The notes beneath the pieces were generated by a model. The model did not search any database and was not told the DNA's origin. It was given only the letters and a program-made list of their open reading frames with translations. DNA of 64,000 nt, taken from a virus. Below are positions 1,888-18,765 of the stretch, one piece after another. Location: UHGV virus genome UHGV-0242533; one strand, given 5' to 3'. Made by a program: the position numbers and the translations under genes. Numbering within the stretch: the stretch's first letter is position 1; the number at the start of each line of letters is the position of its first letter.

Positions 1888-2430
1888 TTAAGCAGGTGTT
1901 ACACCAGTAAAAGTGCATGTTGCATTGATGGACGGGTCAGCTGTCAAACTAGCTTGAACAGTAACTTCGCCACTTGCAGCAGCATCTAATTTTAACGAAT
2001 TATTAGCGCTTATTGTACCAGCTTCTACGGGAGTTACAACAAGTGTGTAATCATCAGCAACAGAATTGGTTACAGTAAACATGGTGTTGAAGTTAGTGGT
2101 AGTACCACCTACTTTACCTGTAATTGGCCCACGACTCACAATAGTAGGAGCAGGAGCAACAATTTCAGAAATGGTTGCTGTACCAGAAACACCTTCTAAA
2201 GTTGCAGTAATGGATACATCAGTGGATTGAGACGCACTCGGAGCAGTATACAAACCAGACTGAGTGATAGAACCACCTCCTGTCACTGACCAAGTAAAGC
2301 CAGTTGTTTCGGTAGAACCATCACTTTTCTCCGCGCTTGCAGTGAACTGCCGAGTAGCCCCTGTCTCTAGACTTGCTAAAGACGCAGGGCTAACAGTCAC
2401 ACTGTCTACTGTTACGCCGCCACCTTTCCC
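1888..2430 (-). CDS. Capsid C-terminal extension with Ig-like domains, predicted to be expressed by -1 frameshift from the major capsid gene
   Basis: The ORF-track start at 2400 is GTG without SD; the frame stays open upstream into the capsid gene in the -1 frame. Product is Thr/Ser/Gly-rich with beta-sandwich-like repeats. Confidence 0.55.
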   Translation of the reverse strand, partial: GKGGGVTVDSVTVSPASLASLETGATRQFTASAEKSDGSTETTGFTWSVTGGGSITQSGLYTAPSASQSTDVSITATLEGVSGTATISEIVAPAPTIVSRGPITGKVGGTTTNFNTMFTVTNSVADDYTLVVTPVEAGTISANNSLKLDAAASGEVTVQASLTADPSINATCTFTGVTPA

Positions 2431-3470
2431 GCAGCAGTGAACAGAACGCCGGAAGCATACGGGTTGCGGTGACGCAGACCAACTTCCATTTCAATCATCC
2501 ACTTCTCGTAAGAACCGTCTTTAGCCAGTTCAGTACGTTTCGGAGCACGCAGAACCATCTGAGTCCAGTCAGCGCTACGGAAGAAGTAAACTGCATCGGT
2601 AGGCATCCAACGGTTAACGATGATTTTGTAGCTCTGGCCCAGCGGGTCAGTGATGCTGTTAACTTCGTAGATGAACTGCTTGGTGTTCTCAAAGATACGC
2701 TTACGTGAACCCTGAGTATTTTCTTGCAGGCCAGCGAAGATCTTAGCATGAGCCGGGTTAATCATGATGATATCAGCTTCAGAACCAGCGGTATACAGTT
2801 GCAGAGTCATATCAAAGATATCAGCTTCGTCGAAACCAATGTTAGTGGTCGGGTTAGAAGCATTCTGTGCAACTTTAACAGTTACTGCACCAGTATCCGG
2901 GTCAGCAGGACCATTCTTAGTCTTGTCAACAACGCCACCAGCCAGACCACCGTGAGCACACAGGAACTGGAATGCACCAGTCTTACGAGCTGCATGGGTG
3001 TCGTTCAGACCAACAACAGTAGGATCAGTTGCAGAGTTAGTCAGGTACTGGTCAGCCAGAACGTCGGTACGAGCCTGACCGGACAGAAGGATTTTCTCGA
3101 GGTCACGCTTGATCTCTTTACCTTTCTTCTCCAGCTGATACATCAGTTCACGACCACGACCGTAGTTAGCGGTGGTGTTAGCAGTATCAGAAACACGAAC
3201 AACCTTACGCAGAATCTGAGTAACGTTAGATTTGATAACAGTCGGTTTCATTTCGCCGTCTTCAGCACGAGAGCCTTCGACGTGTGCGTTATTAGCGTCA
3301 ACGCTTGCCAATGCATCGGTCTGCCAGCTAAAGATAGTCTGGTTGATAGACTCTTTGCCGGTCATGGATACGAACGGGGTATCCTGAGGGGACAGAACAG
3401 AAATCCAGTTAGCAAAAGAAAGTTTTTTACCATTCTGGTCATACGATACAAATAAAGTTGGATTAGCCAT
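2412..3470 (-). CDS. Major capsid protein (352 aa)
   Basis: Position after scaffold and portal, size, and downstream frameshift extension, as in T7 gene 10A/10B. Confidence 0.75.
   Translation of the reverse strand: MANPTLFVSYDQNGKKLSFANWISVLSPQDTPFVSMTGKESINQTIFSWQTDALASVDANNAHVEGSRAEDGEMKPTVIKSNVTQILRKVVRVSDTANTTANYGRGRELMYQLEKKGKEIKRDLEKILLSGQARTDVLADQYLTNSATDPTVVGLNDTHAARKTGAFQFLCAHGGLAGGVVDKTKNGPADPDTGAVTVKVAQNASNPTTNIGFDEADIFDMTLQLYTAGSEADIIMINPAHAKIFAGLQENTQGSRKRIFENTKQFIYEVNSITDPLGQSYKIIVNRWMPTDAVYFFRSADWTQMVLRAPKRTELAKDGSYEKWMIEMEVGLRHRNPYASGVLFTAAGKVAA
2424..2430 (-). other. Candidate -1 ribosomal frameshift heptamer G GGA AAG
   Basis: Plus-strand ctttccc, i.e. GGGAAAG on the coding strand, 4 codons before the capsid stop codon; canonical X XXY YYZ slippery site. 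Confidence 0.55.
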
Positions 3471-3510
3471 GTTATGTTAGCTCCTATACTATTAATAATT
3501 AATTTGTCGA

Positions 3511-4596
3511 TTAATCTACGAGGAATTTGAATGCGTCTTCGTGACTAACGCGACCCTCTGCGAATGCCTTGGCAACCTTAGCGTTGTCGGGCTTATTGGA
3601 AGTACGAGACTTTGCAGCATCAGACTTCACAACCTTGCGTGGAGCACCGGGACGTTTAATCTTAGCCATCACCTGTTGTTTACCTTTATCAAATTGGTAT
3701 GCTTTATGGAGAGCTAGGAAAATAGACGGACGGTTTTCCTTCAATACTTCTTCTTCAGTAGCACCTAAGTCAATTGCGTATTGCATTAAGTTTTGATATA
3801 AGTTTTCATCCCAATTTGGAATCTCACGTTTCAGAATATTAACACATTCAATGCTCTTGGCTTGGAAAGCTTCCTGCTCTTTAGCTGCTGCTTCCTGCTT
3901 AATACGGATTTGAGCCTGTTCAAGCTGTTGACGGCGAGCTGTGTACTTCTCTAGGAAACGTTTGTTTTCAACATACGCTTGAGGATCTTCTACTGCAAGC
4001 TTGTCCCAATCAAAACCGTTGTAATCTTCAATTACTCGATCTGCTTCTAAAGACGCTAATTCTAATACATCCTTCAAACCTACTACACGTTCCTCAAATG
4101 CTTCCATATGACGCTGAAGAGTTGATTCTCGTTCTGTCATATCAGCACCAGTAAGATAGCCATTAGAAAGTTCTTCAATAGTCATCTCACGTCCATCAGG
4201 AAGGGTGATAACGGTTTCGTAGTCTACATCAAAGACTTCACCTTCACCGTCAGCAGAATCATCTTCATATCCTGCATCGCTTGAGTCTTCCTCATCTGCT
4301 TCAGAGCTTTCGTCTGATTCATCAAATTCTTCCTCATCTTGTTCGACTTCGCCTTCCTCAGTATGATCTTCCCAACCATCTTCATCTTCGAACTTAAGCT
4401 CATTGCTTTCACCGAGAAGGTCGGTATCAAAGTCGAAATCGTCACCGTCTTTTTCCGGGAACTCATCGTCAATGTCCACTTCTGGTTCTTGTTCAGATTC
4501 TAATCGACCGAGTTCTTCTTTGAAAGAACCTTTCAGGTCATCTAGTTGGAGGAAAGATTTAAAATCGTTCGGGTCAATATAATTATCTTGTGGCAT
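3511..4596 (-). CDS. Scaffolding protein (361 aa)
   Basis: Highly acidic central region (D/E runs) with coiled-coil-like C-terminal half; located between portal and capsid genes. Confidence 0.6.
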   Translation of the reverse strand: MPQDNYIDPNDFKSFLQLDDLKGSFKEELGRLESEQEPEVDIDDEFPEKDGDDFDFDTDLLGESNELKFEDEDGWEDHTEEGEVEQDEEEFDESDESSEADEEDSSDAGYEDDSADGEGEVFDVDYETVITLPDGREMTIEELSNGYLTGADMTERESTLQRHMEAFEERVVGLKDVLELASLEADRVIEDYNGFDWDKLAVEDPQAYVENKRFLEKYTARRQQLEQAQIRIKQEAAAKEQEAFQAKSIECVNILKREIPNWDENLYQNLMQYAIDLGATEEEVLKENRPSIFLALHKAYQFDKGKQQVMAKIKRPGAPRKVVKSDAAKSRTSNKPDNAKVAKAFAEGRVSHEDAFKFLVD

Positions 4597-4832
4597 TATG
4601 AAACATCTCCTGCACTATTGATAGCAGCTTTTATGACCTCTTTTAAGCTACCAACCATTTTATACTTTTGATAACAATCTTCGCGTTTCTTATTCTCATG
4701 AGGTTCGGTTTGAACTATCTCGGTCATGAGTCTTTCTTTCAATGCCTCTAATGCTGCGTCAAGACTGCCGTTAAGATTGAGAGCCGCCAAAGCGGCGGCG
4801 TGCTCTTTATTGAATTGTTGTCTAATGTTCAT
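4596..4832 (-). CDS. Hypothetical protein (78 aa)
   Basis: ORF track; start overlaps upstream gene in operon context. Confidence 0.45.
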   Translation of the reverse strand: MNIRQQFNKEHAAALAALNLNGSLDAALEALKERLMTEIVQTEPHENKKREDCYQKYKMVGSLKEVIKAAINSAGDVS

Positions 4833-4841
4833 TCGACGTCC

Positions 4842-7085
4842 TTACTTTTTACTTCCAAGACGTTTGCCTGGAATCCGTGAATCTTTGAGAGAAGCTTGTT
4901 GCTCTTTCTTAGTTACATTAGCCTCTTTCTTTTGGAGTTCCAAAGTTTTATCCTGAACACGAGTTTGCTGAACAATCTTCTCTTGATCTACCTGATGAGA
5001 CATAACCATCTGCAATTCTTTCAGTACAGATTCATACTGACGGACCTGCTGTTGCATAAGAGCTAACTTGTGCTTAGCTTGTTCCAGAGTAGCATTGTTA
5101 TCTTCTTTACGGTTTTCCAGAGTCATTGCATCTGCTGCATTTTCTTGCTTGAACTGCAACTCTTCCTGACGCAGACTTAGTTCATCCGCAGCTTTTTGCT
5201 GTTCAAATGTAGTACGCTCACGTTGGTCGAATGCATCAGCAATCATCTTCTGAGAAGAAGCCTGTACGTTCTCAACCTGTGCTTTAGTCATCTCAAGCTG
5301 GAGGATTTCCATCGGAGAAGGTTCTGGCGGCTGATACTGTTCCAGAGGCAGAAGGTACTTGTGAGTGTCCTTAATACCCATCAACTCAAAGATCTGTGCA
5401 GTCATGTAACGGTCTTGCTCCAAACCAAAGAGAGGTGCTAACTGTGCATCTGCTGCAATAAGCTGTTTCAAGCTAATCAGTTTCTGTGCACGTTCTGCTT
5501 TCTCATTAGGAGAGATAGCTACAACAACTTGAAGATTGTGACGAGCTGGTAATTGTTTCGGATTTACCTGAATCATACCACGAGGGGTCTGTACCTCAAT
5601 AGGAACTTCACCATTCTCTCTGATAAGACTGTAAATACCACGCATCAATTCAACCATACCATTGTGAGCAATGTTACGACAGACCATACGGAGACGGTTC
5701 TGTGCAGCATTCATCATCAAGCCTACGGTTGCATAAGCGTTATCATTCTTAAACACATCAGGGTTGATACCCATGCCAAGTTTAGTTACACCTGTACGTG
5801 TCTCTTTAAGCTCCTCAGACATGCCTAGGAGGCCATCAATACCTTGAGGTAGGTTATGGTATGGGAACAGGTCAATAGCGTCTTGACGTTCCATTTCAAC
5901 CACTCCACCGGGACGGTTATCAAGCAGAGAGCGACGGTCGTATGCACCAACAAGAGCTTTGTATCGACCATAGTTAGCATTGTTGACGTTATCAATATAA
6001 CCACGAACTAACGCGGTACGTAAATCTTGAATATCTTTCGTAATGTCATAGACCGATTGACCATAGAAGGAACCCGGAATCGGATACGGGCAGAAGGTTA
6101 CAAACGGAATGTGAGTTACTTCTTCAGTGTGAAGGATATGCTCACCAGCTTGGATAACCTGATAGAGTTTAGACTCTTTATTCTTATCTAGAACACCAGT
6201 ACGAATGTAGTGCTCATAAACCCAAACCATAGAAGCAATATCTTCGGTATCTGTACCAATATCAGCATCAATATCCTGACGCCAGTCAGTACGAGACCAA
6301 GCAACTGTAGATTGAGTGGTATCCATCGTGTCTGTCCAGTCGTTGAATGCTTCAATCTCATCTTTAGGGAAACCCATAGCAACCAGATCTTCTTTAGAAC
6401 GACGTACACGATGACAAAAATATTGTGCATCTGCAAAAGAGGTAGCATGTTCATCAACAAAGATTTGCTCTGAAGGAACATATTCAACTTTCACACGTTT
6501 AACAGTTTGTTCGTAAGTAACTTTAACATCTACTGTACCGTCTTCATTTTCTTCAGTGAAGATTTCCAGATTCTTAAGTCCACCAGCTTCCAATCCCTGA
6601 ACGTATGCAGCCAATGCTTCCGGTGGTACACCTTCAGCTTCTTCAGTTTGAGTAGAAGTGTGCTCATCCCAATAATATTTGATAAAAGAGTTACGAGTAA
6701 CCAGACACTCTTGTGCAGCAGAAGAGATAATATTGTATCCCGGATTATCACGCAGAAGAATTTGGTTAACTAATTTAGTTGCTACATCAGCAGCATCAGA
6801 ATCCTGTTGGTTGTCAGCTACGAAAGTAACTGCTTCGTCACCAGAACAGAATACGTTAATAATATCTTGCAATGTACCGTTAACAGATTCCCAAACAGTA
6901 CGATCTACCCAACTAGAGCTGCCAGCAGTTACTGGTGCAGGTAAGTTACCATAGAAATATTCCCAAGCTTCACGAGCATAGCCCTTAACAGCTGTGTCTA
7001 CGTAACCTTGAGCGTAATTAAAACGACGTTGAAGGTCAACACGTAACTCGTCCAACACCTCTTCACTATATTTTTGCTTAGCCAT
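4842..7085 (-). CDS. Portal protein (747 aa)
   Basis: Large protein immediately downstream of terminase large subunit and upstream of scaffold and capsid; C-terminal coiled-coil tail. Call is positional. Confidence 0.65.
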   Translation of the reverse strand: MAKQKYSEEVLDELRVDLQRRFNYAQGYVDTAVKGYAREAWEYFYGNLPAPVTAGSSSWVDRTVWESVNGTLQDIINVFCSGDEAVTFVADNQQDSDAADVATKLVNQILLRDNPGYNIISSAAQECLVTRNSFIKYYWDEHTSTQTEEAEGVPPEALAAYVQGLEAGGLKNLEIFTEENEDGTVDVKVTYEQTVKRVKVEYVPSEQIFVDEHATSFADAQYFCHRVRRSKEDLVAMGFPKDEIEAFNDWTDTMDTTQSTVAWSRTDWRQDIDADIGTDTEDIASMVWVYEHYIRTGVLDKNKESKLYQVIQAGEHILHTEEVTHIPFVTFCPYPIPGSFYGQSVYDITKDIQDLRTALVRGYIDNVNNANYGRYKALVGAYDRRSLLDNRPGGVVEMERQDAIDLFPYHNLPQGIDGLLGMSEELKETRTGVTKLGMGINPDVFKNDNAYATVGLMMNAAQNRLRMVCRNIAHNGMVELMRGIYSLIRENGEVPIEVQTPRGMIQVNPKQLPARHNLQVVVAISPNEKAERAQKLISLKQLIAADAQLAPLFGLEQDRYMTAQIFELMGIKDTHKYLLPLEQYQPPEPSPMEILQLEMTKAQVENVQASSQKMIADAFDQRERTTFEQQKAADELSLRQEELQFKQENAADAMTLENRKEDNNATLEQAKHKLALMQQQVRQYESVLKELQMVMSHQVDQEKIVQQTRVQDKTLELQKKEANVTKKEQQASLKDSRIPGKRLGSKK

Positions 7086-11559: not shown

Positions 11560-11588
11560 TTGACATGTTAGGTAATAAGAAGTATAGT
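11560..11588 (+). promoter_or_regulatory. Sigma70-like early promoter
   Basis: TTGACA, 17 nt spacer, TATAGT. Confidence 0.5.
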
Positions 11589-11629
11589 TATCTCATTGAA
11601 ACGAAGTATACTAACTAAAGGGGTCAATC

Positions 11630-12106
11630 ATGAATAAGGCAAACTTTGTAATCGGTGCTCTGGTATTAACCTTCGGTAGTATGGCTATCGCTGACAAGAT
11701 TGCTAGCGCTCCAGTTGCTCAAGCTGCTGTAGTTATGACTGATGCTGCTGATACATTCGTTAGCAACGCTCCTAAAGGTTGGATGGTTTGTAAAGGATTG
11801 GATTCAGATAACGTCACTACGTTGATGAAAGTTAAATTATCTAACGTAACCAATCGTGGTATGATTTTGTCTACTCGTACACTTGACAATCAGAACAATG
11901 AGGATATTCTTCTTTCCCGTAAAGACAATGACCCTGAGTTGATTACCTTTGGCGATGTGCAGACTATCAAAGGTTCTAAAGTTGTGACTAATCTTGTAAC
12001 GTATGGTACAATGCAAGAAACCATGTTAGCCACTTCCGTTTATGCTGCTGATAACAGTATTTGGACGTTCCGCTTTCAGATGGGTGATTGTGTTAAAGCA
12101 AAATAG
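11630..12106 (+). CDS. Secreted protein with signal peptide (158 aa)
   Basis: N-terminal MNKANFVIGALVLTFGSMAIA signal-like segment; RBS aaagggg. Confidence 0.55.
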   Translation: MNKANFVIGALVLTFGSMAIADKIASAPVAQAAVVMTDAADTFVSNAPKGWMVCKGLDSDNVTTLMKVKLSNVTNRGMILSTRTLDNQNNEDILLSRKDNDPELITFGDVQTIKGSKVVTNLVTYGTMQETMLATSVYAADNSIWTFRFQMGDCVKAK

Positions 12107-12109
12107 TTG

Positions 12110-12138
12110 TTGACACGGTTATAGATTGGCAGTATTAT
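12110..12138 (+). promoter_or_regulatory. Sigma70-like early promoter
   Basis: TTGACA, 17 nt spacer, TATTAT. Confidence 0.5.
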
Positions 12139-12173
12139 TACTTCATCAAGACAACATTAAAGGAATCAAGACA

Positions 12174-12503
12174 ATGAAAACCCTAATCGCATCTGCTCTT
12201 TTATCTGTAGCTGTTCTTTCAACTGTTGGATGTTCTTCTTCTCCGCGTCCTAACGGTTGGTGTGCTCTGGAAGTTGAAGGCACTTGTGTGATGCGTTGGA
12301 AAGATGGCGTTAAGGTTCCTGCTGGTGAGATTGACATGAAGTACGAAGGTGCTAGCTGTTCTAATGGTGGGTCTGTTGATGAAAAAGCCTATCGTGAGCG
12401 TGATATGAAAACACAAGCCGATTGGAAGAAGTCAGATTTTATCTCCCGAGCAACTCATTGCGGTGGCAATACTTCCGTTAAGGGTAAAGAATGGGACATT
12501 TAA
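12174..12503 (+). CDS. Lipoprotein (start at internal ATG 12174 preferred over ORF-track 12126)
   Basis: MKTLIASALLSVAVLSTVGC lipobox-type signal; RBS aagga; paralog of the 21091 gene. Confidence 0.55.
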   Translation: MKTLIASALLSVAVLSTVGCSSSPRPNGWCALEVEGTCVMRWKDGVKVPAGEIDMKYEGASCSNGGSVDEKAYRERDMKTQADWKKSDFISRATHCGGNTSVKGKEWDI

Positions 12504-12607
12504 AAAGATTAGTTTGCAATACTAGTTCTAACGTACTATCTTTGATTTTCACCGTGATTGCTACTGCAATTGCTTACTATGTTCTTGTTGTTTTGGGAGT
12601 GTGACTT

Positions 12608-12871
12608 ATGACTAAAGAGTACAGCTACACTATTCCCACCCGTAACTATGGCGATATTGACTTTTCTTACACTGACACATCTGACAAGTGTTTAATCTTG
12701 TTCGTTAGTGGTGATAATATTAATGCGGTGGAGTTTCCTGCTGTTGCTCTAATCATGGATGACGTTAAAGCTGGTCATTATCTAGCGCAACGTGGGGTTC
12801 TTCTGTCACTGGAAGAAATTAAATTGCTTAGAGTATCACTCTTTGAAGGTAAAGGCAACGATGAAGAATGA
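12608..12871 (+). CDS. Hypothetical protein (87 aa)
   Basis: ORF track; RBS gggag. Confidence 0.45.
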   Translation: MTKEYSYTIPTRNYGDIDFSYTDTSDKCLILFVSGDNINAVEFPAVALIMDDVKAGHYLAQRGVLLSLEEIKLLRVSLFEGKGNDEE

Positions 12872-13442
12872 TTATTTTTGGCGGTGCTTGTTCATTGCTA
12901 CAGTGGTGCTATTCGTCGCTGATATGCTTTACTCTTACGTTCTTTAAGGCCTGAGTGTGCTGTTTTTGTTTGTGTTTGTCGTGGGCTTCATTTCTTTAAA
13001 TTATTTACTGATTGTTGCCGCTCTGGATATTCTTAATCTCAATACTAAAGGTTGATTGCTATGTGGTTTATTAAATTCTTAGGCTTAATCTTTCTTCTTT
13101 ATTGTGCCGTAGTCATGCCTATGGTCATAATTTATCTGATTCTATAATCCTTCCTGTAAGCCTCCTAGTGAGGCTTTTCTCGTTTCTAAGGTGATTGTAT
13201 GCCTTCCTCCCTTTTAGCTCGTTGTGATGCTTCTGAGAGCGTCAAATAGTGCTTTACAAGCCTGTTTTAGTGTGTTATTCGCGTGCGCGTTCCTTTATAC
13301 CTCCCTTCCCTGAAAAAATAATCGAAATAGGTGTTGCTTTCCTCTATCACTTCCACTATCATCTATTCATCGGTTAAGCAGTACCAAGTAGACAACCTGA
13401 TAAGTCGTACGAAAAACAGGTAATCGATAAGAAATAAAAAGA

Positions 13443-13470
13443 TTGACAAGGTATCCAAACGTAGTAAGAT
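13443..13470 (+). promoter_or_regulatory. Strong sigma70-like promoter P1
   Basis: A-rich UP-like tract, TTGACA, 16 nt spacer, TAAGAT. Confidence 0.6.
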
Positions 13471-13590
13471 GGGTATCAGAAACAAAGCAAGGAAACTTGC
13501 AAATGCTCTTTAAAAACTTATCATCTTGCCCTTTCGCAAAGATTCACGCGAGATAAGGGAAAGGAATTCAAAGAAGATGATAAAAAAGAG

Positions 13591-13618
13591 TTGACAAGGT
13601 AATCCAGTGAGTTATAAT
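13591..13618 (+). promoter_or_regulatory. Strong sigma70-like promoter P2
   Basis: A-rich tract, TTGACA, 16 nt spacer, TATAAT. Confidence 0.65.
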
Positions 13619-13766
13619 GGTTGCCAGTTAGCAGATACACAGCTAACATGTTCTTTAAAAATATGACCTGATTCACTAGCCTAGCCGCTTAGTAATCCTC
13701 AATCAAATATAGCTGATTGATATATCCTCCCAATAAAGGGAACGACGAAAAAGATTAAAAAGATGG

Positions 13767-13795
13767 TTGACAGGCACTGAGAGTTAGGGCATAAT
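13767..13795 (+). promoter_or_regulatory. Strong sigma70-like promoter P3
   Basis: A-rich tract, TTGACA, 17 nt spacer, CATAAT. Confidence 0.6.
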
Positions 13796-15638: not shown

Positions 15639-15675
15639 AAGGCGCTATCTTAACGGGTAGCGCCTTTTCTTTTAT
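15639..15675 (+). terminator. Intrinsic terminator
   Basis: Hairpin aaggcgcta...tagcgcctt followed by a T-run. Confidence 0.7.
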
Positions 15676-16442: not shown

Positions 16443-16886
16443 GTGGCTAAATCTAAAATCAGCATGAAGGGCGGGCGTTGTTTTGCTATCTCTGAACTAG
16501 AGAAAGAGAAACCGAAGGCAACTAATCACGTTAGTAAGCGTAGTTTAAAACGTCGTGCTGCAAAGGCTGAGGCTGAATCCCATGTTCCTTCCAGTGTGGC
16601 AAAGCGTGTAGGCCATCGTGTCCATCGGGCTGATGCGTTGTTGTTGGCTGATCATAAACGTTCTTTGTTAAAGAGCGGGGGAGCTAAAACAGAAGAGGAG
16701 AAGAAGTTAGAAATCTTCTGTAATGGTCGCACCCGTGGTAAACAGAAGTTTAAAGGTAGCACGAAAGACCCGCAGGCTTTCCCTAAGACAAGCCAGTGTG
16801 CACCTGATGTTTTCTACGCAGATAGTAAACACAAGTGGGGCGTTGAAAAATACATTGACCCCATCAAAGAGGCAAGGGTTAAGTAG
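16443..16886 (+). CDS. Highly basic protein (147 aa)
   Basis: Lys/Arg-rich; RBS aaaggaataag before GTG/ATG. Confidence 0.45.
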   Translation: MAKSKISMKGGRCFAISELEKEKPKATNHVSKRSLKRRAAKAEAESHVPSSVAKRVGHRVHRADALLLADHKRSLLKSGGAKTEEEKKLEIFCNGRTRGKQKFKGSTKDPQAFPKTSQCAPDVFYADSKHKWGVEKYIDPIKEARVK

Positions 16887-16900
16887 TAGGAATATAGCCC

Positions 16901-16921
16901 CCTCTTTTAGTACTATGACGC
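16901..16921 (+). promoter_or_regulatory. Conserved motif CCTCTTTTAGTACTATGACGC (copy 1)
   Basis: 17-mer core identical to a second copy at 23736-23756; partial third copy near 13206. Confidence 0.4.
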
Positions 16922-16966
16922 TCTTTCTGTAGCGTCGTGCCCTCTCCCCATTTGAAGCTTCCGCAT

Positions 16967-17020
16967 AGCCGCCTTTGAGCGGCTTTTTGCGTTACCGCCT
17001 CCTTAATTGGAGGCTTTTTT
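16967..17020 (+). terminator. Two tandem intrinsic terminators
   Basis: agccgc-loop-gcggct+TTTTT and gcctcc-loop-ggaggc+TTTTTT. Confidence 0.65.
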
Positions 17021-17046
17021 GTATCTATTATATAGGAAACCATGAA

Positions 17047-17769
17047 ATGAAAGCATTTGCATTGTCAGCTATTCTAGTTTTATCTGCCATTAGTGCCCCA
17101 TCCTTTGCTCATTCTGACAAATGCTCACACTCTAAACAGTGTGAAGTCCAGCAGGGGCCGAAAGGTGATAAAGGAGAACAGGGTATTCAAGGCGAACAAG
17201 GTCCGAAAGGTGACAAGGGTGATCGCGGAGAGCAGGGCTTAAAAGGTGATACTGGATCGGCTGGCATCAATGGTACTAATGGCATTGATGGTAAAGATGG
17301 CATTGATGGTAAAGATGGCGCTCAAGGTGAAAAAGGTGATTCTGGTGCAGATGGTAAGAAAGGCGAAACTGGCCTAACTGGTGCAGCAGGTTTGAATGGC
17401 GTTGACGGATTAAATGGCAAAAATGGTAAAGATGCAGATATGTCTGCCGTTAATGCTAACGCCAAATCTATCAAAGCTCTGGAACAATCCACCAACAAAC
17501 GTTTTGCTTCTTTGCAAAAACAAGTAGACCGTAACCGTGATCATGCCTCTGCTGGTATTTCTGGCGTGGCTGCAATGGCTAACATCCCGCAAGTAAGTCA
17601 AGGATCTGCTTTCTCTGTTGGTGCTGGGGTAGGTGCTTACGATGGTGAATCTGCTCTTGCTATTGGTGTTAGTGCTCGTTTCAATGAAAACGTAGTAACT
17701 AAAGCATCAGTGGCAATGACTTCAGAGAGTGACGCTGTTCTGGGCGCTGGTGTAAGTTACGAGTGGTAA
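17047..17769 (+). CDS. Collagen-like protein with signal peptide and YadA-like C-terminal anchor
   Basis: Start taken at internal ATG with RBS. Signal MKAFALSAILVLSAISAPSFA; long GXX collagen-like repeat run; C-terminus SAGISGVAAMANIPQV...SALAIGVS...VTKASVAMT...GAGVSYEW resembles the trimeric-autotransporter anchor. Confidence 0.6.
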   Translation: MKAFALSAILVLSAISAPSFAHSDKCSHSKQCEVQQGPKGDKGEQGIQGEQGPKGDKGDRGEQGLKGDTGSAGINGTNGIDGKDGIDGKDGAQGEKGDSGADGKKGETGLTGAAGLNGVDGLNGKNGKDADMSAVNANAKSIKALEQSTNKRFASLQKQVDRNRDHASAGISGVAAMANIPQVSQGSAFSVGAGVGAYDGESALAIGVSARFNENVVTKASVAMTSESDAVLGAGVSYEW

Positions 17770-17879
17770 GATAGTGCCTCTCCCGAAAGGGAGGGGTGTT
17801 TCTATAAGCATCTTTTCGAGGGTGTTTATTGAAACAACAAAACAGGAGGTAGCAAGTTCTGATAACAACGGCACAGCTA

Positions 17880-18269
17880 ATGTTGACATTGACTATTTAT
17901 TATGAGGCAGGGAATCAGCCAACCGCATGTAAGGCTTTAGTTGCGGATACCGTGATAAATAGAATGGCCCAACGAAAACTGACCGCTGAACAGGTGATAA
18001 GACAAAAGAACCAGTTTGAGTGGATTCCGGTACTATTAAAACAGGAGAAACCTTATAAACGTTATGTAAAGCTGATTCGTGATAAAAATCCGATGACTAA
18101 GCAAGCCATTGGAGAAAGCGAGCGGCTAGCTAAACGTGCCCTTAAGAAGAATTATGTTCCTCTGTACAGTGGGACTTACTTTCAGAGTAAGAGCGAAGGG
18201 GTGCCAAAATGGTATGCCAATCCTATGTATTGTGGTGATTTAGTGTTCGATAATAGCTCTAGGGAATAA
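17880..18269 (+). CDS. Putative SleB-like cell-wall hydrolase domain protein (129 aa)
   Basis: YYEAG...ALVADTVINR...QFEW resembles the SleB/Hydrolase_2 family; no good SD. Confidence 0.35.
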   Translation: MLTLTIYYEAGNQPTACKALVADTVINRMAQRKLTAEQVIRQKNQFEWIPVLLKQEKPYKRYVKLIRDKNPMTKQAIGESERLAKRALKKNYVPLYSGTYFQSKSEGVPKWYANPMYCGDLVFDNSSRE

Positions 18270-18468
18270 TCACTAGTGCCAGATTTGACAAACTAAATTC
18301 CTTTATAAACCAACCACTTAGTAAATTTATTGAAAAAGATGGTAGTATTCTGGGACTATGGGTAATGCTCTGTATATAGACCTTTGAAAATTTCTTAGAA
18401 AATAAGTTTACTAAATATAACTTACTTAAATAATATTACTTTTAATCTCTGATAAAGGGTAAAATGAT

Positions 18469-18765
18469 ATGACTTTAGAAGTATATAAATTCCTTTTTGT
18501 AAGCTGTTTAACTATCAGCGTTATAGGATTTATTGTTCTCAGAAACAAAGCAGCAAGCTGGGAGAGAATGTATAAATCTCTAGTACGAGTAGATGAGATG
18601 TATAATGAGAAGGTTAAAGCAACTCTTAACGATCTTATCATGCAAGTTGAAGACAGAAACAAGCGTCTTCAGAATCTCAACCATGAAGTATTACGCCTTG
18701 CTCGTGCTAATGAAGACTTGCGAGTGGCTATTGCTAAGCAGCAGGAGGTTAATAGTGAAGCATGA
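18469..18765 (+). CDS. Membrane/coiled-coil small protein (98 aa)
   Basis: N-terminal hydrophobic helix; RBS aaagggt. Confidence 0.5.
   Translation: MTLEVYKFLFVSCLTISVIGFIVLRNKAASWERMYKSLVRVDEMYNEKVKATLNDLIMQVEDRNKRLQNLNHEVLRLARANEDLRVAIAKQQEVNSEA

Follow-up and report, generated by a model that had tools for sequence, protein, structure and literature searches.

Two questions are raised by positions 17047-17769 (plus strand) of a viral DNA stretch of 64,000 nucleotides (UHGV virus genome UHGV-0242533), the whole of which is referred to here as the window: why a virulent phage of Escherichia coli should carry a gene whose product appears to be built for a bacterial outer membrane, and whether that product belongs to the virion or to the infected cell. 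A preliminary description, made from the letters of the sequence, had proposed a collagen-like protein with a signal peptide and a YadA-type membrane anchor, bracketed by terminators and possibly acting in superinfection exclusion, receptor masking or cell-surface remodelling. The analysis described below indicates that the product is most likely a fibre of the host outer membrane made during infection and not a part of the virion. The best explanation of the locus, which we hold to be probable, is that it encodes a small type Vc trimeric autotransporter that infected E. coli would install early in its own outer membrane. The gene is not new, being already annotated in phiEco32 (2008) and EcP-vB. 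The window was classified by sequence as a Kuravirus (Gordonclarkvirinae), a phiEco32-like virulent podophage of E. coli, because its positions 16800-18300 were 99% identical to Escherichia phages EcP-vB, EcM-vB1, EcK-vB and phiEco32 in a megablast comparison with GenBank phages.

Domain architecture of the protein

The coding sequence and the parts of its predicted product, all on the plus strand, are as follows.

17047-17769, plus strand: coding sequence of the collagen-stalk trimeric autotransporter, homologue of phiEco32 gp119, 240 amino acids (aa) plus stop, assigned from the open reading frame (ORF), Pfam and homology
17047-17109, plus strand: predicted Sec-type signal peptide, aa 1-21, MKAFALSAILVLSAISAPSFA, called by heuristic, with cleavage predicted after SFA
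17110-17154, plus strand: mature N-terminal tip, aa 22-36, HSDKCSHSKQCEVQQ, 15 residues with a C-x5-C pair (Cys26, Cys32)
17155-17433, plus strand: collagen-like stalk, aa 37-129, 31 uninterrupted Gly-X-Y triplets, from Pfam and our own script
17262-17319, plus strand: 18-bp tandem repeat, GGCATTGATGGTAAAGAT, encoding GIDGKD, 3.2 copies in the window
17434-17586, plus strand: helical neck or coiled coil with lumen helix, aa 130-180, from alignment and a low-confidence predicted helix at 132-178
17587-17766, plus strand: YadA-like beta-barrel anchor, aa 181-240, four predicted strands, C-terminal ...VSYEW

All three elements proposed in the preliminary description were recovered. The N-terminus (MKAFALSAILVLSAISAPSFA/HS) carries a lysine at position 2, a hydrophobic core with a mean Kyte-Doolittle value of 2.75 and small residues at -3 and -1 as calculated with our own script, and the same kind of N-terminus was present in all 10 aligned phage homologues; signal peptides were judged by this heuristic throughout. 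When the profile hidden Markov model search suggested for the anchor and the collagen repeat was run against Pfam, both domains scored above their cut-offs. The Collagen family (PF01391) matched with an E-value of 2.5e-17 and YadA_anchor (PF03895) matched aa 181-240 over profile positions 1-60 of 60, with an E-value of 1.7e-19 and 70 bits against a cut-off of 22.7. As a sequence pattern, the uninterrupted run of 31 Gly-X-Y triplets is beyond chance. The stalk contains two prolines, about 48% of its X and Y positions are charged (own script), and in triple-helical form it would measure about 27 nm (0.286 nm per residue). The neck holds the motif AGI[SA]GVAAMANIPQV, invariant in the alignment of phage homologues, and the C-terminus matches solved anchors by sequence in phmmer, namely YadA 2LME (E 2.3e-8, aa 151-240) and Hia 2GR7, 2GR8 and 3EMO. 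The protein ends in ...GAGVSYEW, and the final aromatic W is nearly invariant in the alignment; a C-terminal aromatic residue is the signal for insertion by the beta-barrel assembly machinery (BAM).

All NCBIfam matches were local and below threshold; they concerned the anchors of YadA and BimA as well as three collagen adhesins (Scl1, Scl2, Lcl), and for YadA and BimA the scores were far under the equivalog cut-offs. No adhesive head domain, which is typical of the family and not obligatory, was found with Pfam, whose matches were Collagen and YadA_anchor alone. The single-chain AlphaFold2 model was poor (mean predicted local distance difference test score 47) and placed a helix at 132-178 and three anchor strands. 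The features expected of a type Vc (YadA-family) protein can nonetheless be read from the sequence: a full anchor, a putative signal peptide, an aromatic end, and a passenger of trimeric-fibre type with a helix. A collagen triple helix forms only as a trimer; the product likewise has the characteristics of a bacterial collagen-like protein, in which neck and anchor would be the nucleating module.

Position in the genome and existing annotation

The product was placed in the host membrane because virion assembly in the cytoplasm does not suit a protein predicted to have a Sec signal peptide and a barrel of the outer membrane. The gene belongs to the early arm, and the late structural genes are on the other strand: large late genes occupy the minus strand at both window ends, and the long plus-strand arm begins near 11 kb. 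Four strong sigma-70-type promoter matches were found on the plus strand at 11560, 12110, 13591 and 13767 (cluster 11560-13795), that at 13591-13618 being a perfect TTGACA-16-TATAAT, and they agree with published work on phiEco32, whose early genes are transcribed from four sigma-70 promoters where the early cluster begins (PMC8948821). The yadA-like gene follows about 3.3 kb past the last of them, amid small early-arm genes of unknown function.

Comparison with relatives points in the same direction. The virions of SU10, in which the slot for the gene is empty, are complete without it, and the published SU10 virion proteome lists no such protein. For Shigella phage B2, whose gp84 is a homologue 59% identical to the window protein, the table of CsCl-purified virion proteins lists gp30, 34, 36, 39, 45, 48, 49 and 50 and not gp84 (PMC11654681). 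In four other virulent phage groups that carry such a gene, it was found among replication, nucleotide-metabolism or unknown genes and never among structural ones. Sequence, genomic context and comparison thus all support the preliminary description where it favoured a host outer-membrane trimer over a virion component.

Existing labels are inconsistent. The homologue phi32_119 (phiEco32 gp119) is an 'agglutinating adhesin' in GenBank and a 'tail protein' in RefSeq, and that of EcP-vB and EcM-vB1 is annotated as 'YadA-like protein'. According to a paper of 2013, phiEco32 and the Salmonella phages FSL SP-058 and SP-076 each have a yadA homologue, which in the latter two is not near tail genes (PMC3728262), and a survey of 2023 found the YadA anchor in 19 N4-like genomes and termed it a virulence-type auxiliary gene (PMC10654107). 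The searchable literature on phage-encoded YadA-like proteins consisted of brief genomic comments, with no experimental work. In the phiEco32 (L001, 4189-4986) and SkaterBoy (L006, 1591-2508) records the start is set at an upstream TTG, which puts about 40 residues translated from terminator hairpins at the N-terminus of the annotated protein. The corresponding longer reading in the window, from a TTG at 16975, was rejected as not credible, since it would run through the terminator hairpins. Both the TTG start and the 'tail protein' label (RefSeq, PHROG) look like annotation errors.

Variable slot, transcription signals and distribution

The slot between the gp120 and gp117 homologues (window 16887-17879) is a replacement hot spot, and the gene is an optional accessory cassette in this variable part of the early arm. 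A yadA-like protein was present in only 15 of 100 related records. The slot is wholly empty in SU10 (L113, 4150-4392), and in SGF2 (L003, 1588-2233) and 172-1 (L004, 1585-2316) it is occupied by an XRE-type helix-turn-helix gene. The latter two retain the last ~20 nt of the yadA-like gene (GGTGTAAGTTACAAATAG) and its hairpin beside the helix-turn-helix gene, an indication that the one took the place of the other. Presence and absence of the kind seen for morons was accordingly observed between otherwise collinear relatives (SU10, SGF2, 172-1 and the yadA-like carriers). The 172-1 slot also contains a 40-aa membrane-like ORF.

Where the gene is present, its two ends behave differently. The window and EcP-vB share an allele with the tip HSDKCSHSKQC; phiEco32, SkaterBoy and KM01 share another, in which signal peptide and tip (KSGNNGNGNGGCGVGQSTNGCGIGDWF) are both unrelated and two closely spaced Cys are again present; and a third, shorter allele occurs in one metagenomic sequence. 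The spacing of the Cys pair is 5-8 residues in every allele. The number of triplets varies from 12 in KM01 through 22 in phiEco32, 31 in the window and 34 in SkaterBoy to 37 in EcP-vB, length changing through the 18-bp GIDGKD repeat, of which there are 0 to ~8 copies among Kuraviruses. The C-terminal 147 codons, by contrast, are nearly invariant among Kuravirus alleles, with mostly synonymous differences (ratio of nonsynonymous to synonymous polymorphism, pN/pS, ~0.1, from small counts), and the C-terminal 147 residues of the window protein are identical in phiEco32 and EcP-vB. No match to the DNA of the gene was found in 5,426 complete E. coli genomes (blastn, 'distant' mode), and a plasmid search gave matches at most 54% identical.

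The signals that flank the coding sequence, again on the plus strand, are as follows.

16967-16984, plus strand: terminator T1, 6-bp GC-rich stem, T run to 16989
16997-17020, plus strand: terminator T2', stem 16997-17014 (GCCTCC...GGAGGC), then six T
17034-17037, plus strand: Shine-Dalgarno sequence AGGA, 9 nt upstream of the ATG at 17047, read directly
17042-17050, plus strand: mini-ORF of two codons, ATGAAATGA, its stop overlapping the true start (ATGA)
17776-17797, plus strand: downstream hairpin, 9-bp stem with GAAA loop, then GUGUUUCUAU

Both the tandem pair at 16967-17020 and the downstream hairpin of the preliminary description exist, but the idea that they bracket the gene holds for the hairpin and not for the pair. 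The tandem terminators are signals of the backbone and are not owned by the cassette, since the empty slot of SU10 still has a T1-T2 pair, its T1 equal to that of the window, immediately before the next gene's ribosome-binding site. T1 is kept 3' of the gp120 homologue in all Kuraviruses examined. T2' is specific to the allele of the window and EcP-vB; phiEco32, SU10 and others have another T2, 70 bp further from T1, and the window T2' differs from the T2 of SU10 in the sequence of its stem and, lacking the 70-bp spacer, lies next to T1. T1 and T2' together fold with -28 kcal/mol (z -5.6). The downstream hairpin (-18.7 kcal/mol, z -3.9, weak T tract) is a weak terminator or a 3' stabiliser, and it belongs to the cassette because it is absent from the empty slot of SU10. 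In KM01 the hairpin after the gene has the loop TTTC instead of GAAA on a retained stem, that is, an inverted loop. The mini-ORF ATGAAATGA occurs in both yadA-like alleles and not before the helix-turn-helix gene, which may reflect translational coupling or merely shared ancestry.

A search of the interval between T2' and the ATG gave no sigma-70-type promoter match, and the phage-sigma consensus TAATGTATA had no match with at most one mismatch near the gene. The phage-sigma element tAATGTAtA before the gene agrees at 7 of 9 positions in the window (TATTATATA) and at 8 of 9 in phiEco32. A conserved motif before the ATG, CTAYTRTATAGGAA, occurs once in the window and is therefore not a repeated regulatory cassette. 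As many early genes downstream need to be expressed, transcription must read through T1-T2, and early transcription of the gene probably comes about by such read-through, starting at the four sigma-70 promoters; this timing was deduced because no promoter of its own is recognisable.

Several further features of the early arm were recorded. Another strong terminator, with a 12-bp stem, lies at 15639-15666. The next gene after the slot (17880-18269) encodes a 129-aa Hydrolase_2 protein (SleB-type cell-wall hydrolase, Pfam E 1.7e-7) with no obvious signal peptide; it belongs to the early arm, is kept in all Kuraviruses examined and is frequently labelled 'hypothetical'. A lysis role for the yadA-like gene by way of this neighbour was considered and rejected, since the hydrolase is part of the backbone and is present also where the slot is empty. 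A GTG-started 43-aa ORF at 17774-17905 (phi32_118 in phiEco32), which shares sequence with both the downstream hairpin and the beginning of the hydrolase gene, is without a family match and is probably no gene. A candidate middle promoter, GAATGTATA, is present at 18566-18574 within the ORF of the gp116 homologue; it matches every strongly conserved position of tAATGTAtA, the promoter element of the phage sigma factor (gp36).

A signal peptide, a collagen stalk and an anchor were also found together with tblastn in Ithacavirus, Citrobacter phage Tr1, Yersinia phage P778 and Erwinia phage RF1. The Ithacavirus (N4-like) carriers are FSL SP-058, FSL SP-076, TR2 and Shigella B2, Tr1 belongs to the Stephanstirmvirinae and the P778 genome has 90 kb. 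Pfam found both domains in each representative submitted (FSL SP-058, Tr1, P778 and RF1), and the alignment revealed a common collagen-to-neck junction, GKDADM..VNAN. In IMG/VR, 22 viral contigs of 15-260 kb had a related anchor match; 16 of the 22 anchor ORFs passed the signal-peptide heuristic, and among the other six, two had a similar N-terminus and two were cut by the start of the locus. A word-indexed protein search returned only 16 relatives and was replaced by an exhaustive HMMER search, which returned 2,402 cluster representatives at E <= 1e-3; at least six Gly-X-Y triplets were present in 16 of the 147 closest new representatives. In GTDB, the anchors 55-69% identical to that of the window protein belong to ordinary autotransporters of 311-590 aa from many Enterobacteriaceae, a few of them with collagen runs. 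Because of these HMMER and GTDB counts, the predicted collagen-stalk architecture is regarded as a minority within the family that is recurrent and not exclusive to phages.

Two observations were made among these relatives. In IMG/VR loci L025, L026, L027 and L030 (31-152 kb), positions 2234-5149 hold a phage-encoded autotransporter of 694 aa followed directly by a 254-aa gene, whose product starts with an apparent lipoprotein signal (...LVAAC), an arrangement reminiscent of the SadA-SadB pairing of Salmonella. A tip motif, GSVQ[IV]SQCAS...NC, is common to many phage and metagenome collagen-stalk autotransporters (P0018, P0022, P0079, P0146; L013-L017) and is missing from the window allele; it appears to be an undescribed small tip domain.

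Possible roles and known systems

Sec export, assembly of the barrel by BAM and export of the passenger from C- to N-terminus are established for the YadA family, and collagen naturally folds from C to N. In the mechanism proposed here, the precursor would cross the inner membrane via Sec, BAM would assemble three anchors into one 12-stranded barrel, and the passenger would be threaded out as a hairpin, its C-terminal end first and proceeding towards the N-terminus. The neck would nucleate the trimer and the collagen helix would zip up from C to N, producing a headless rod of about 27 nm with a small disulfide-looped tip and a reach comparable to that of YadA. Classical autotransporters reportedly pass only short disulfide loops through the barrel, as Leyton et al. 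are said to have found in 2011, and the close Cys spacing (5-8) would fit this limit.

As to what the rod is for, the role ranked first, ahead of adhesion and of a nearly silent passenger in that order, is that of a surface coat or tip-specific binder altering access to the infected cell surface; we put it forward tentatively, as the leading candidate and not as a probable one. Such a coat or binder would block superinfecting phages, or stop progeny from adsorbing to infected cells and debris, and stalk length and the swappable tip would be the determinants of specificity. It is favoured because the product appears to be early, surface-coating and headless, with a variable tip and length on a conserved base.

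A number of points weigh against the autotransporter model and the role attached to it. Most Kuraviruses do without the gene. Two good terminators lie directly upstream, and no convincing promoter was found between them and the ATG. The signal-peptide call is a heuristic one, and the trimer and 12-stranded barrel are expected from family membership, the single-chain model being poor. Localisation and expression are predictions from sequence for the window protein and its homologues alike. Exclusion, masking or remodelling would be carried out by a protein without similarity to known exclusion proteins, and no PADLOC defence family matched at E <= 0.01. The published comments, finally, take these genes for adhesin or virulence genes (PMC3728262, PMC10654107). 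On balance, the preliminary interpretation is partly supported.

The alternative that survives best, possible although we rate it below a shield or decoy, is that the fibre is an adhesin or aggregation factor, which would bind infected cells to one another or to uninfected neighbours, mucus or host tissue and so keep the burst close to new hosts, or would raise bacterial adhesiveness incidentally. Adhesion or auto-agglutination is the typical activity of YadA-family and bacterial collagen-like proteins, the best local NCBIfam matches are to Scl1/Scl2, Lcl and the YadA/BimA anchors, tip swaps and variation in repeat number resemble adhesin variation, and this is the view of the two publications just cited. 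However, Pfam detects no head domain, the mature tip has 15 residues, no binding motif was identified, and under infection by a virulent phage any benefit to the cell is limited to a single latent period; aggregation is usually attributed to sticky heads (PMC7568254).

That the gene is a passenger with little or no function, derived from an enterobacterial autotransporter, barely expressed behind its terminators and in the course of being lost, is considered unlikely. The strong tandem terminators and the lack of a recognisable promoter would suit it, as would the empty slot of SU10, the helix-turn-helix gene with a yadA-like 3' remnant in SGF2 and 172-1, and the anchors 55-69% identical in the chromosomes of many Enterobacteriaceae. 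Yet the ORF is intact in at least 13 distinct phages and at least three alleles, changes in its anchor half are mostly synonymous, and four other groups of virulent phages have retained the architecture. The lack of a close DNA match in the 5,426 E. coli genomes argues against recent capture from the host, and read-through does occur, since the early genes past the same terminators have to be expressed.

A virion fibre or tail protein is by far the least credible reading, since the RefSeq label, the match to PHROG 26246 'tail protein' (E 3.5e-86), further matches to many collagen-containing tail-fibre PHROGs and the frequency of collagen repeats in phage tail fibres stand against a predicted Sec signal peptide and beta-barrel anchor incompatible with cytoplasmic assembly, an early-arm position on the opposite strand and far from the structural genes, absence of the gene from SU10 and most Kuraviruses, absence of B2 gp84 from the B2 virion table, and tail-fibre PHROG matches restricted to the collagen repeats; the label of PHROG 26246 most likely spread through collagen similarity to true tail fibres.

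To return to the autotransporter model, a bolder extension, which we regard as doubtful, is that several unrelated virulent enterobacterial phage families share a headless collagen-stalked autotransporter, placed early in infection in the outer membrane of the dying host, as a length-tunable fence or tip-specific decoy that would exclude competitors or protect progeny from adsorption to infected cells and debris. Specificity would then evolve through stalk length, set by the 18-bp repeats, and through exchange of the Cys-loop tips. If true, phage-encoded exclusion systems would gain a new class, and a function would for the first time be assigned to a collagen triple helix exported via a type Vc barrel. 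Were the protein displayed on infected cells, strictly lytic phages would be using the host BAM to remodel the surface within one latent period, and the natural series of 12-37 triplets would provide a compact model of collagen folding coupled to autotransport. There is also a practical side, as both Kuraviruses and N4-like phages are candidate agents of therapy and biocontrol: an 'adhesin/virulence factor' label can disqualify them on safety screens, and the 'tail protein' label misleads host-range engineering. An optional, non-virion, host-membrane status would settle how the gene is to be handled, and natural gene-free variants of the SU10 type exist.

Among known systems, the phage lipoproteins Llp of T5 and Cor of phi80/N15-type phages are small and bind a specific receptor, FhuA. 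The likeness would be one of function only, in that they too are exported and change access to the outer membrane; they have no sequence or structural relation to the window protein. The Eib proteins (EibA/C/D/E/F/G), reportedly described by Sandt and Hill in 2000 and 2001 and by Leo et al. in 2011, are said to be prophage-encoded, immunoglobulin-binding trimeric autotransporters of E. coli. They act in lysogens, in serum resistance, immunoglobulin binding and chain-like adhesion. They resemble the window protein as phage-borne YadA-family outer-membrane fibres made by the host, and differ in belonging to temperate prophages and in having heads, with stalks of coiled coil instead of collagen; PMC13534694 contains the terms EibD, prophage and trimeric autotransporter. 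Streptococcus Scl1/Scl2, Legionella Lcl and Bacillus BclA likewise have a Pro-poor, charge-rich Gly-X-Y stalk, repeat-number polymorphism and surface display, but are anchored through LPXTG and sortase or by other means and trimerise by a globular head instead of a beta-barrel. YadA, Hia and BimA have in common with the window protein the signal peptide, helical neck, four-strand anchor and C-terminal aromatic residue, whereas the window protein is headless, has a collagen stalk in place of a long coiled coil, is only 240 aa long and is the product of a virulent-phage gene.

The proteins of Ithacavirus, Tr1, P778 and RF1 are closer, being 45-59% identical to the window protein with the same three-part design, the GKDADM..VNAN junction and the lumen-helix motif AGIAGVAAMANIPQV; their stalks are longer (17-46 triplets) and their N-termini larger, with a 55-residue beta-rich tip with C-x4-6-C or an extra coiled coil. 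Closest of all are phiEco32 gp119 and the EcP-vB protein, which belong to the same family and whose genes have the same place, with the gp120 homologue on one side and the gp117 homologue on the other: the phiEco32 allele differs in its signal peptide, its tip KSGNNGNGNGGCGVGQSTNGCGIGDWF, its T2 and its 22 triplets, and the EcP-vB protein differs from that of the window only by 18 extra stalk residues.

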